Shown here piece after piece: positions 15,217 to 19,514 of a stretch of DNA of 64,000 bases. The number at the start of each line of letters is the position of its first letter. Position 1 is the stretch's first letter. The position numbers and the translations under genes were made by a program. The notes beneath the pieces are model-generated. The model ran no database searches. It had not been told where the DNA came from and saw only the letters and a program-made list of their open reading frames with translations. Source of the stretch: a bacterium. GTDB taxonomy: Bacteria > JADJOY01. Location of the stretch: assembly GCA_046331705.1 (NCBI GenBank), contig JAXLQJ010000030.1, positions 1-64,000 on the forward strand. Reading direction: 5' to 3'.

Positions 15217-15295
15217 GCCCAACCCAGCTCACCAGCGGCCACGAACTACCACGCGTTCAGGCCTGTGTTCCTTGCGCCGACTGGTCGCGCCGAGT
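15217..15295 (-). repeat. attC site D (its R'' end displaced to 16558-16561 by IS3)
   Basis: Plus strand GCCCAAC-CCA-GCTCACCAG-CGGCCACGAACTACCACG...CTGGTCGC-GCCGA-GT|CGAC. Confidence 0.7.
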
Positions 15296-16553
15296 TGAAC
15301 GCCCGGGTTCCGGAACTCAATCGAAGAGGATGGGGTCATGGGACGCAAGAGCAAGTATCCGAACGAGGTGCGTGAGCGAGCGGTGCGGCTGGTCTACGGC
15401 CAGCAGGGTCAGCACGAGTCGGTGGGCGGCGATCTCGGCGATCGCCGGCAAGATCGGGTGCACGCCCGAGACGCTGCGGCTGTGGGTGCGCCAGGCCGAG
15501 CGTGACACGGGCAAGCGGGCCGGCCTGACGACCAGCGAGCGGGATCGCCTGAAGGACCTGGAGCGTGAGGTCCGCGAGTTGAAGCGGGCCAACGAGATCC
15601 TTGCAAGGCGTCCGCGTTTCGCTGACGGCGAGAACCGACCGCCGACCTCGCTGATGGTGACCTTCATCGATCAGCACCGGACCGAGTACGGGGTCGAGCC
15701 GATCTGCGACGTGCTGCCGATCGCCCCGTCGACGTACTACGCGCATCGGGCGTGCCCGGGATCGGCCAAGCGTCCGGCGCGCGCGAAGCGCGGCGAGGCG
15801 CTGCGCCCAGAGATCCAGCGGGTGTGGAACGAGAACCAGGCCGTCTACGGCGTGAGGAAGGTCTGGCAGCAGCTGGCCCGCGAGAAGGTCGGCGGCGCGT
15901 TGCACCGTCGATCGCCTGATGCGCGGCCTGGGGCTGCGAGGTGCCGTCTGCGGCCGCGCCTTCCAGGTCACGACGACGGCTGACGGGCCCGCGCGGCCAC
16001 CCGACCTGGTCGCTCGGCGCTTCACCGCGACACGGCCCAACCAGCTCTGGGTCGCGGACATCACGTCGCCGACCGGCTGGGTTTCGTGTACGTCGCGTTC
16101 GTGATCGACGTGTTCTCGGCGCATCGGTGGCGAGTGTCGAGTCCGCTGAAGACCGATCGCCCTCGATCGCTCGAGCAGGCGCTGCGCCGCCCCGGTGCCG
16201 ACGGCGTCGTGGTCCACAGCGACAGGGCCGGCAATACACAGCGATTCGCTATACCGAACCCTCGCCGCCGTCGGCGCGGTGCAGTCCGTCGGCAGTGTCG
16301 GCGACCTACGACAACGCCCTCGCCGAGACGATCAACGGGCTCTACAAGGCCGAGGTGATCCGCAGGGGCCGGGCAACATCGATATGGTCGAGTACGCAAC
16401 GCTGGTCTGGGTGGACTGGTCAACAACCGCCTCTCGAGCCGATCGGGTACGTCCCGCCGGCCGAGTACGAAGCGGCGTACTATCGAGGTCAAGAGAGCCA
16501 GGCCGCTGGCCTGACTCAAGTAATCCGGTCTCCGGATTTCCCGGGGCAGTTCA
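15296..16553 (+). mobile_element. IS3-family (IS51/IS6110-like group) element, frameshifted orfA/orfB
   Basis: Ends TGAAC..CCCGGG / CCCGGGGCAGTTCA; 4-bp GAGT duplication at 15292-15295 and 16554-16557; Orf[29 protein letters not shown]; OrfB YGVEPIC, WVADIT, HSD, YDNALAETINGLYKAE. Confidence 0.92.
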
Positions 16554-16561
16554 GAGTCGAC

Positions 16562-16850
16562 GATACGTCTGTTTTTTGATCTGTGCACGGCGCCGGCCCA
16601 AGCAATGAGTACATCGCGAAGAACCAAACGGCGTTGGTGACCCACGCCGCGGCGCCAGACGGGCGGCTATGCAGCAGGCCAGCTATAGCGTCACCAGGAA
16701 AGCAACAACAAATGCAGGCAGTCCCAAGAAGAGCATCAGGAAGGATCCCGCATGGGCGAAGCCCGCGAAGACATCAACTATGACGCGGCTAACACCAACA
16801 AGTGCAGGCGAATACGCAGAACACGGCCAAGCGCCACCATTCGAGGCCCG
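16562..16850 (-). pseudogene. Putative cassette membrane protein (frameshifted)
   Basis: Hydrophobic pieces FAHAGSFLMLFLGLPAFVVAFLV and AAWVTNAVWFFAMYSLLG between attC C and attC D. Confidence 0.4.
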
Positions 16851-16986: not shown

Positions 16987-17253
16987 TTCCGCGTGCCAAG
17001 GGCGCTCAAGCGTCCTCGAACACGACAACGAACTCCAACATCTCATTCTGGGCGTCTTGCAGGCAAGCTAGAGGAGGCATCGCGAGGAAGGCGATTGAGC
17101 ACGTTCAGCCCCTTCAAACCAGGCGTAGCGGAGATCGTCGCCTTCGATAGCGGACGCACTCCAGCGCGTCCCAGTTTCCTCCGTAGGCCAGGAAATCGAG
17201 GGCGCCGGCAAGAAGCTCATGCAGCGAGGCCGAGAACGTAGCATGCGCGACAT
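16987..17253 (-). pseudogene. Putative small cassette gene (frameshifted)
   Basis: Pieces EGDDLRYAWFEG and LACLQDAQNEMLEFVVVFED between attC B and attC C. Confidence 0.35.
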
Positions 17254-17303
17254 TGATCACGATCACTTCGGGGCGCTGAGTCAATCCTGCCTGCTAACCC
17301 AGA

Positions 17304-18827
17304 TGGAATGAGAAGGCTGACCTCCCGATCACGAGATGTCGTGAACGATCTCAAGGTTGGATCAACGGGCTCGAAGCCCAAACAGGGTCAGCCATGAGCG
17401 ATCGTGCCACGAAGTCCTTCGATCGAAGCGCAGGCCGCCCCGCTTCCGCCCCTCACCGCCGGCCTCGACGTCGGCGACCGCCACTCGACGATGTGCTTCA
17501 TCGACGCCGCCGGCGAAACGGTCGAGCGTACGCGGGTGCGCACCACCTCCGAGGCGTCCGGGGCATTCGGCCACCGCGCACCGCTGCGCATCGCCCTCGA
17601 GGTGGGTACCCACTCTCGATGGATCCGTCGGCTGCTCGTCGAGCTCGGTCACGAGGTGTTCGTCGCGAATCGTCGGGTCCGAGCGATCCGAAGGACACGA
17701 AGACCACGTCGGATGCCGAGATGCTGCGCGACTTCGCGCGGGTCGACCCAGCTTTGTCCCGTCGAATCGCCGCGAGGATGGCCGGGCGCTCGCGGTGCGC
17801 AGTCGCGACGGTGTCCGCGCGCGCACTCTGCTCATCAACCACGTCCGCGGTGCCATCAAGCCGGTGTCGGAAGCACTGTTCGTCCGAGAGCCGCACGCCA
17901 GGCGCCGGAGCAGATTCCCGCGGAGCTGCAGGCGGTGCTTCAGCCCGTCATCGAGCAGATCGGCCACCTGACCCGCACCGTCCGAGAGTTCGAGCAGATC
18001 GAGGCTCGAGCAATTCCCCGACGCACAACGGCTGCGGGATTCAAGCGTTGGTCCCGTGACCGCGCTCACCTTCGTTTTGACCGTCGACGACCCGGCGCGG
18101 TTCCAGAACGCGCATGATCGGACCCTATCTCGGACTTTACCCCCGGCGAAAACAAAGCGCCCGGGACGATCCGCAGCTCGGCATCACGAGCGGGCGAGAC
18201 CTGCGCAAGCTCGTCGTCACCTGCGCGCAGCACACGCTAGGCCCATTCGGCAAAGATAGCGCCTTGCGCCGCTGGGGACTCCAGCGAGCAGGCCCGGCGA
18301 TCGGATCGCCAAGAAGAAAGCGGTCGTTGGCGTCGCCCGGCGACTGACCGTCGTGATGCTGCACCTGTGGGTGGTGGCGAAACCACCGGCCGTTTCCGAC
18401 GCCCGCGCCACCCGCGCGACCGCCTTCCCCGGAAAAGACCGTCGAGAAGGAGAAGAGGCGGCATAGCCGGCGACTCAGAGAAACGAACACCAGATGGAAC
18501 CGATGGAGCAACGGAAGGCCGCGGCGCGGGTCGCGGATCTCGGCGACCAGCACCGCCACCTCGTCCGGGTGACCGAGCTGCGAGGCTCCGGCAGACCCAG
18601 ATGGCGGCACCAGGGCGAGTCGGACTCCAGCCTGCACCGAGGAACCACCGGCTCACCCGAGTGCGAATGGAAGCGTGGCGTCGGTGGTTCGCCCGCCTTC
18701 GATCGTCGGCCCGCGACGGTCGGCCTTCCCGACTGCTCTTCGAGAAACCGTTCATCTACCCGCGAATACGCCGAACGGGCACCGCCGCCTCAACAAGGAG
18801 TGAACTTGAGGAGAGCCTTCATGGAGA
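17304..18827 (+). mobile_element. IS110-family (IS1111-like architecture) element with frameshifted transposase and 3' non-coding region
   Basis: GLDVGDRHS, ALEVGTHSRWI, DAEML, RTLLINHVRG, GPVTAL, YLGLYPRRKQS, KKKAVVGVARRL; sub-terminal IRs ATGAGAAGGCT (17308) / AGCCTTCAT (18814); AGA shared at both junctions. Confidence 0.85.
18560..18780 (+). ncRNA. Candidate bridge/seek RNA of the IS110 element
   Basis: Non-coding region after the transposase with stems CGGGTGA/TCACCCG (18566/18653) and GAACCACCG/CGGTGGTTC (18642/18682); contains ACCCAGATGG, identical to the left junction. Confidence 0.5.
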
Positions 18828-18898
18828 ACCAGCAGCGGCCACGGACTACCGCGGCGTCGCGCATCCCGGTTGCCGAGTGCTGCAGCGGCCAGTTGGAC
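18828..18898 (-). repeat. attC site B (its R' end at 17292-17303, separated by IS110)
   Basis: Minus strand R'' GTCCAAC-TGGCC-GCTGCAGC; core GCGGCCACGGACTACCGCG; R'-like GTTAGC beyond the IS. Confidence 0.72.
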
Positions 18899-19429: not shown

Positions 19430-19514
19430 CGTCAACCCTGCTCACCTGCGGCCACGGACTACCACGGGATCCAGACGAGCGCCACCACGCGTCAGGTGCA
19501 GCGATCAGTTCGGT
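19430..19514 (-). repeat. attC site A
   Basis: Minus strand: ACCGAAC-TGATC-GCTGCACCTG ... CAGGTGAGC-AGG-GTTGACG; core GCGGCCACGGACTACCACG. Confidence 0.8.

Follow-up and report, generated by a model that had tools for sequence, protein, structure and literature searches.

An IS1111-type element inserted in an integron attC site, and a predicted guide RNA matching the junction it occupies

RNA-guided targeting by insertion sequences (ISs) of the IS1111 group, attC sites of integrons included, was shown experimentally in 2024 (PMC11187229). As described in that work, ISKpn4 and ISPst6 are directed to attC by a seekRNA and the same is predicted for ISPa25; in the RNAs of IS1111 elements, a match to the top strand lies 5' of a match to the bottom strand, both overlapping in the target, and guides can be swapped with little change in the protein. 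Bridge RNAs are predicted for 93% of IS1111 elements (PMC11208160), and the IS1111-attC group is reported to insert near the 5' end of attC, antisense to the cassettes (PMC3001079). Here we analyse an element of this kind in a bacterial genome of 8.17 Mb (118 contigs, 70% G+C). It occupies positions 17301-18826 of the window, by which we mean the whole 64,000-nt stretch studied (positions 1-64000 of contig C30, GenBank JAXLQJ010000030.1), and is a 1526-bp IS110-family, IS1111-type IS that interrupts an attC site, lying between its two pieces. We consider it very likely that a bridge/seek RNA from its 3' region carries guides that read attC where its L' and R' boxes meet. Because such targeting has already been demonstrated, the principle is not new and is left unchanged by this locus; new here are the end of attC that is struck, the host and the type of integron and, probably, the lineage.

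The element shares with ISKpn4, ISPst6, ISPa21 and ISPa25, as these are described, its IS1111 type, its site-specific insertion in attC antisense to the cassettes, a (here predicted) RNA arising from non-coding sequence 3' of the transposase gene, and a top-strand match 5' of a bottom-strand match with overlap at the insertion point. It differs in position, at the 3' (R') end of attC as against the 5' end reported for the IS1111-attC group, and in setting: the known members come from Pseudomonas and clinical class 1 integrons, whereas the present host has an 8.2-Mb genome of 70% G+C and copies of the element occur in sludge. Compared with a plasmid collection, its transposase reaches at most ~35% identity. 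IS621 likewise has a two-part RNA, in which one part binds the donor and the other, a target-binding loop, carries a left and a right guide flanking a 2-nt core; this core is also doubled at the IS ends (CT in IS621, AG here). However, the RNA of IS621 lies in the 5' end and not in the 3' end as here, and the present elements have long sub-terminal repeats (11-15 bp), an extra hairpin between the guides, and just one donor guide that we could find, for the right end. ISEc11 and ISXne4 are comparable in that relatives retain the RNA stems and swap loop segments with the target (38 modules here), but their target is a linear 13-bp sequence and not a recombination site; an annotated record of the ISEc11 family is ~30% identical by tblastn to P0001, the intact transposase described below. 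Group IIC-attC introns also use RNA and home to attC in antisense orientation (PMC3001079); unlike the present element, they are retroelements, use another mechanism and target the 5' end of attC.

The original prediction, made from the letters of the window alone, held that excision of the element would restore an attC site, and removal of the IS does rejoin ...CTGCTAACCC-AG-AACCAGCAGCGGCC...GTTGGAC. The piece to the left, TGCTAACCC (17292-17300, plus strand), reads GGGTTAGCA on the cassette strand and corresponds to R', the 3' core site. Its last bases, AACCC (17296-17300, plus strand), are the left flank of the target, which would be read by the second guide. The remainder, on the right (18827-18898, plus strand), runs on the cassette strand from R'' (GTCCAAC) through L'' to L' (GGCCGCTGCTG); it matches a model of five attC sites of this genome with E=1.5e-13 (nhmmer), and also the six-site family alignment. 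Three copies of the element are present in the genome: the window copy, one on contig C2 (1633 bp, locus L002) and one on contig C54 (locus L003). Among these, only the C2 copy has an open transposase frame, of 379 aa. An independent metagenome contig carries a 100% identical 1633-bp copy in a different attC site, and near-identical copies are present in activated-sludge metagenomes.

In the window, the IS110-family (DEDD) transposase gene (17394-18466, plus strand) is spread over three frames as assembled; its intact version is the 379-aa protein of contig C2, P0001. This protein matches Pfam PF01548 DEDD_Tnp_IS110 (1.4e-21, residues 23-165) and PF02371 Transposase_20 (2.3e-20, residues 227-302), as well as NCBIfam NF033542, "IS110 family RNA-guided transposase" (227.6 bits, cut-off 140). 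Residues D26, E71, D109 and D112 are invariant across 28 aligned relatives, and the closest solved structures are those of the ISCro4 and IS621 transposases (PDB, IS621 E=3e-10). The motif GL-P----S(t)G, given for the IS1111 group (PMC11187229), is found in the C-terminal domain as GLCPRRKQSG. The intact copy has 96 nt 5' of the start codon and 397 nt 3' of the stop, that is, a long downstream non-coding region, and its 11-bp sub-terminal repeats fall within the 7-17 bp reported for IS1111 elements (PMC11208160). With 379 aa, including a Pro/Lys-rich tail, P0001 lies outside the 330-350 aa quoted for IS1111 transposases; its relatives range from 343 to 399 aa, and the quoted figure is a spread of lengths and not a rule (PMC11187229). 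We assign the element to the IS110 family, as a member of IS1111 type. When genome contigs were scanned with the single protein, no close relative of P0001 emerged, and the sole transposase match in four genomes of the same genus is 31% identical. A profile of 28 homologues, on the other hand, retrieved from genome contigs 80 loci that are 43-55% identical to P0001, mostly in metagenome-assembled genomes from soil, peat, groundwater and sludge (Acidobacteriota, Dehalococcoidia, Gemmatimonadota, Actinomycetota, Eremiobacterota and others).

The left end of the window element (17301-17318, plus strand) consists of the core AG (17301-17302), an extension ATGGA (17303-17307) and a sub-terminal inverted repeat, ATGAGAAGGCT (17308-17318). 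At the right end (18814-18826, plus strand), the repeat AGCCTTCAT (18814-18822) is followed by GGAG. Such repeats had been predicted, and both are there; the right one falls short of its counterpart in the intact copy by 2 nt, and intact copies end in GGA+AG with the core last. Counting the 2-nt AG core, 7 nt separate the 11-bp repeat ATGAGAAGGCT from the left end, and 5 nt separate it from the right end. A trinucleotide AGA was said to be common to both junctions. This is true of the window (17301-17303 and 18825-18827), but intact copies and 55 relatives share only AG; the window has AGA because its right end lost an A (CATGGAG, against CATGGAAG in intact copies). A pattern search found paired sub-terminal repeats ATGAGAAGGC(C/T) at 55 of 81 loci (L002 included), most of them with a left end AGATGG(G/A)+ATGAGAAGGC and a right end CAT(G/A)GAAG. 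Since the ends of most of these 55 loci carry AG, the dinucleotide shared by both junctions is AG, and the flanks beyond it vary from element to element.

Four loci (L056, L094, L077 and L091) have AGATG or AGAGG in place of AGAAG at the right junction, although the RNA retains ATAGAAG; the core there appears to have mutated after insertion. A Dehalococcoidia sub-branch (L047-L050, L055, L057, L068-L076) has other sub-terminal repeats (CTCGATGGGCC or ATGAGGGCTGGTC), and at some of its loci the RNA has AGCTGGCAGC in place of AGATGGCAGC. One genome of this sub-branch contains seven identical copies, which would yield a clean target logo.

The 3' non-coding region was predicted to be structured, and a conserved two-domain RNA is indeed recognized across the 80 related loci, with a stem backed by covariation. 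Its first module is present at 76 of 81 loci and has the order GGYGACTGCG, variable segment, small hairpin, CG, variable segment ending in AG, AT(G/A/T)GCAGCRCC. For the analysis of structure and guides, 37 of the 81 loci were dropped because they lacked a module, complete flanks or a cleanly paired repeat, and 6 as duplicates, leaving 38 unique modules. Aligned together with 172 nt downstream, these give four helices with 21 pairs, 12 of which have changed on both sides. In the alignment, 93.2% of the cells are paired, against 84.8% in shuffles and 33-45% with slid partners, and none of 500 shuffles matched the observed value on any of five measures. The variable loop sits within the first helix, GGYGACUGC/GCAGCRCC, which has 96.8% of its cells paired and changes on both sides in 4 of its 9 pairs. 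By contrast, the stem initially proposed, CGGGTGA/TCACCCG, exists in the window (18566-18572 and 18653-18659, one base off the predicted place) but is not conserved: 46.6% of the cells pair in the 38 sequences, and 226 of 500 shuffles score no worse. It looked best in the window because the true stem there has lost two bases.

Alignment with the intact copy and the family module places the remnant of the putative target-binding loop at 18567-18611 (plus strand). It comprises the 5' stem strand GGGTGAC--CG (2 nt missing), a remnant of the first guide, AGCTGCGA (18576-18583), a shortened hairpin, a remnant of the second guide, ACCCAG (18595-18600), and the 3' stem strand ATGGCGGCACC (18601-18611). 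In the second domain (18612-18680, plus strand), a GCAC/GTGC stem enclosing a further hairpin is followed by ATGGAAG (18667-18673), the candidate donor guide for the right end. By analogy with known systems, the 3' region would encode a bridge/seek RNA of ~150-190 nt that is transcribed and bound by the transposase. An Rfam scan of the whole window returned only the frameshift pseudoknot of an IS3-family element, and no family for this RNA; elsewhere in the genome no solo RNA module was found, a loose pattern giving chance matches only.

The two variable segments of the loop relate to the two flanks of each insertion. The first, with CT as its last bases, is the reverse complement of AG joined to the right flank; the second has AG as its last bases and repeats the left flank followed by AG. 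The guides of the intact copy are GCTGAGCT (GCUGAGCU as RNA), matching AG+CTCAGC, and (C)AACCC+AG, so that they overlap on AG. The starting point of the prediction was a 10-mer, ACCCAGATGG, shared by the left junction (17297-17306) and the non-coding region (18595-18604). It does occur exactly twice in the 64 kb, with 0.02 occurrences expected and no case of two or more in 100 shuffles. As a guide, however, it holds only in part: ACCC is target-specific, but AG is the core and ATGG is, in almost every relative, part of both the conserved stem and the left end of the IS. Moreover, the 10-mer of the window is partly the product of a 6-nt deletion, the intact copy reading GCAACCCAGATGG, and it covers half of the guide, the other half being GCTGAGCT ~30 nt upstream.

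The covariation of guides and targets was measured by scoring each module against each target as contiguous pairs outward from the core, G-U allowed. Own targets were clearly favoured, with a mean of 4.32 pairs against 0.72 for other targets with the left guide, and 4.08 against 0.77 with the right guide; 26 of the 38 modules gave their own target the top score, alone or in a tie. Exact matches of at least 5 bases were found for the left guide in 13/35 own pairs and 19/1190 others, and for the right guide in 14/35 and 56/1190, respectively. In addition, every element has AT(G/A)GAAG after the second stem, which agrees with its own right end CAT(G/A)GAAG in 37 of 38 cases; the single exception has a doubtful boundary. 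As a separate observation, the left junction has a second match in the window, CCAGATGGAA (18490-18499), just past the transposase stop and 80 nt before the RNA module. Shorter sense matches of the IS left end occur at a like position in three relatives only (L032, L095 and L040).

All fully flanked insertions of the element, three in the genome and one on a metagenome contig, are in attC sites of one family (4/4). Copies that keep the same loop while lying in unrelated sequence, which would have spoken against guided insertion, were not found among them. The window copy lies at CTAACCC-AG-AACCAGCAGC, the C2 copy at CTAACCC-AG-CTCAGCAGCGG, the C54 copy at TCAACCC-AG-AGCTCAGC and the metagenome copy (IS 100% identical over 1633 bp) at AGAACCC-AG-AGCTCAGCAGCGG. 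The three genomic copies have AACCC on the left and CAGCAGCGGCC on the right after 0-3 bases. A contig of another sludge run matches the window from 17296, so that the match opens with AACCC, and the element is seen only at those sites of the family in which the four bases after AAC give AACCC-AG. Together, the IS1111 type, the covariation of loop and flanks, and the four attC sites support the proposal of an RNA-guided recombinase programmed against an attC family. The combined guide (AACCCAGCTCAGC) also has two perfect 13-nt matches in the genome, at C10:196309 and C71:28131; as candidate attC targets these were rejected, both being ordinary sequence, vacant and not attC.

The following mechanism can be proposed. 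The first RNA domain would present, within a stem, a loop with two guides split by a small hairpin; the 5' guide would pair with the core and right flank on the top strand, and the 3' guide would correspond to the left flank and core. AUGGAAG after the second stem, which repeats the element's own right end and core, would serve in the fashion of a donor guide. By analogy with ISEc11, ISKpn4 and IS621, the complex of transposase and RNA would pair the junction of a circular IS (...CATGGA-AG-ATGGA...) with the target, and strands would be exchanged at the AG core. The target is the point near the 3' end of attC where the L' and R' boxes adjoin, and the insertion severs R' from the remaining site, which might affect cassette mobility. 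The AT of ATGG may, purely by analogy, play the part of the "handshake" bases of IS621 (PMC11208158).

The genome contains 20 attC sites of this family at E<1e-4, using a profile from five uninterrupted sites. Their ends are inverse AAC...GTT cores, one end being GTTGGGC, GTTGAAC or GTTGGAC, and most sites have RYYYAAC/GTTRRRY cores; in most, AAC is followed by four bases and then AGCTCAGC. Three full-length integron integrase genes score above the TIGR02249 cut-off (C59:21710-22654, C44:3476-4420 and C23:90368-91282), whereas the 64-kb window has none. Five attC sites lie within 5.5 kb of intI on C23 and four within 4.5 kb of it on C59, spaced in both arrays by single small open reading frames (ORFs). 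Cassette genes encode PIN, HicB and BrnT proteins on C59 and a DUF4177 protein on C23. In the window, a barstar-like cassette ORF (17114-17284, minus strand; Pfam Barstar E=1.6e-4, 22 bits, under the cut-off of 23.4) starts 8 nt past the R' fragment. The best attC site folds as the expected bulged hairpin (z=-1.38), whereas two window sites are at shuffle level. Besides the interrupted site, the window has two clear attC sites of the same family: an uninterrupted one (15220-15300, plus strand) that offers a near-perfect vacant target, CAACCC-AG-CTCAcC, and another (19434-19512, plus strand) without AG at the target position.

The strand of the barstar-like ORF indicates minus-strand cassettes here, in antisense to the transposase gene of the IS. 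Recognizable genes in the window are opposite to the transposase, and so are the neighbours of the C2 copy, judged by the ORF list only. Where an integrase gene is near, recognizable cassette genes share its strand, and in the C59 and C23 arrays they point against the orientation given to attC when describing the IS, which is that of the original prediction. From the strands of the cassette genes, the site on the cassette strand is R''-L''...L'-R', and the arm of attC with the extra base agrees with this orientation. On this strand, the interrupted site reads ...GGCCGCTGCTG(AG)CT|GGGTTAGC. The IS lies in antisense between L' and R', with ~72 nt of attC on its 5' side and ~10 nt on its 3' side, and is 2 nt away from the GTT of R'. 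In both the C59 and C23 arrays, the cassettes point the same way as intI and not divergently. The C59 and C44 loci have near-identical neighbouring ORFs and may be a duplication or strain variants.

Several observations weigh against guided insertion as described. Two of the four sites (metagenome and C54) read AACCC-AG-AGCTCAGC, where the guide halves abut without overlap; the right flank of the window copy, AACCAGC, pairs poorly with the first guide of the intact copy; and as assembled the window copy cannot work, its transposase and guide loop being broken. Twelve of the 38 modules ranked their own target below first, and 16 had a right-guide score of 0 or 1, partly because the scoring anchor demanded CT and several first guides end in C. 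Related elements are non-independent samples, and the G/A character of the donor guide may reflect no more than a handful of changes. For a left-end guide (the reverse complement of AGATGG...), no conserved place was found, only scattered 6-mers that do not covary. Finally, the folding energies of the attC sites and of the RNA are no better than those of shuffles (z +1.17 to -1.52). Such energies, together with the facts that only 9 of the 20 sites are in arrays beside an integrase gene and that the window has no such gene, would also suit a REP-like (repetitive extragenic palindromic) target unrelated to integrons. However, arrays of four to five sites with single small ORFs between them directly adjoin two of the three intI genes, the ends of the sites are inverse AAC...GTT cores, and the genes between them (PIN, HicB, BrnT, DUF4177, the barstar-like ORF) are of cassette type, which leaves this explanation highly improbable. 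The target could also be picked by the protein, or by folded attC alone, with the matches between non-coding region and junction arising by chance: six of the ten bases of the 10-mer (AG+ATGG) come from the end of the element itself and are found again in the RNA of almost every relative, irrespective of target, and attC sites are structured targets of other recombinases. Against this stand the guide-target covariation across the 38 unique modules, the agreement of RNA and right end in 37 of 38, the compensatory changes in the stem bordering the loop and the experimental precedent of ISKpn4, ISPst6 and ISEc11 (PMC11187229), and we give this possibility hardly any credence.

Under guided insertion into attC, the state of the window copy and the ancestry of the element can be considered in turn. 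Relative to the intact copy, the window copy has 57 deletions (112 nt), 3 insertions and 13 substitutions. Many of its 60 indels may be assembly errors in a repeat, and we find such error somewhat likelier than true decay. The copy would then be truly intact and probably identical to that of C2, a live element and no relic, with 60 uncorrected long-read consensus errors, and we lean slightly towards this. The spectrum of changes is atypical of natural decay, and two other sludge runs carry the intact form only (contigs of 1520 and 1620 nt, whose alignments to the window contain 97 and 92 gap letters). In one of these runs, the IS contig has a depth of 10.9 against 3 for the right-flank contig (~3.6x), as expected if about three alike copies collapse into a single contig; by appearance, the neighbouring IS3 copy is frameshifted too. 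On the other hand, long ORFs elsewhere in the window stay open, the absence of the deleted form from the runs is no proof because contigs lose rare variants, and each run contains at most 0.31 of the stretch's words, the uncovered parts of the window being uninformative. Tetu and Holmes reportedly described, in 2008, degenerate IS footprints in cassette arrays for IS1111-attC elements. As for ancestry, descent from the published monophyletic IS1111-attC subgroup (ISPa21, ISPst6, ISKpn4, ISPa25) would fit the common target class and antisense orientation (PMC3001079), and guides are described as swappable with little change in the protein (PMC11187229). However, identity to the transposase does not exceed 35.5% among the 5000 best-scoring plasmid records and is 25-30% for enterobacterial ones, whereas the most distant pair quoted within the known attC group is 46% identical (PMC11187229). 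The published group is moreover placed near the other end of attC and, as far as Durrant's supplementary table goes, the known attC ISs fall in one cluster whose representative resembles by eye the IS4321-type and not P0001. Such descent thus appears unlikely, and, by sequence comparison, the element is probably a lineage separate from the published group. It is possible, though we put it somewhat below even chances, that a soil and sludge lineage of bridge-RNA ISs (Acidobacteriota, Dehalococcoidia, Gemmatimonadota, Actinomycetota and others) was reprogrammed onto the R' end of attC independently of the Pseudomonas group, one guide half reading the conserved L' box and the other the R' core. 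Three enterobacterial plasmid matches considered as attC-targeting ISs were discarded: they lie beside a Tn3-family transposase gene, resolvase genes and other ISs, and not in integrons.

IS110/IS1111 recombinases are under development as programmable genome-insertion tools, and members that target attC can freeze integron cassette arrays. The locus adds to these a well-sampled natural series in which 38 different guide modules are each paired with a target of their own, an RNA whose two-domain architecture is clear, and an attC-targeting member beyond the clinical and Pseudomonas setting that cuts the other end of attC. It also adds a natural case of one guide in two registers: if one RNA does insert at both AACCC-AG-CTCAGC and AACCC-AG-AGCTCAGC, the guide halves tolerate a 2-nt register shift, a design rule undescribed for these recombinases. 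The main value lies in this comparative material and in a candidate enzyme-RNA pair.

Elsewhere in the window, an IS3-family element (15300-16600) directly follows the attC site at 15220-15300. It contains an ALIL frameshift pseudoknot (Rfam RF01497, 70.4 bits, 15613-15728), and its first ORF has an apparent frameshift beyond the programmed one.

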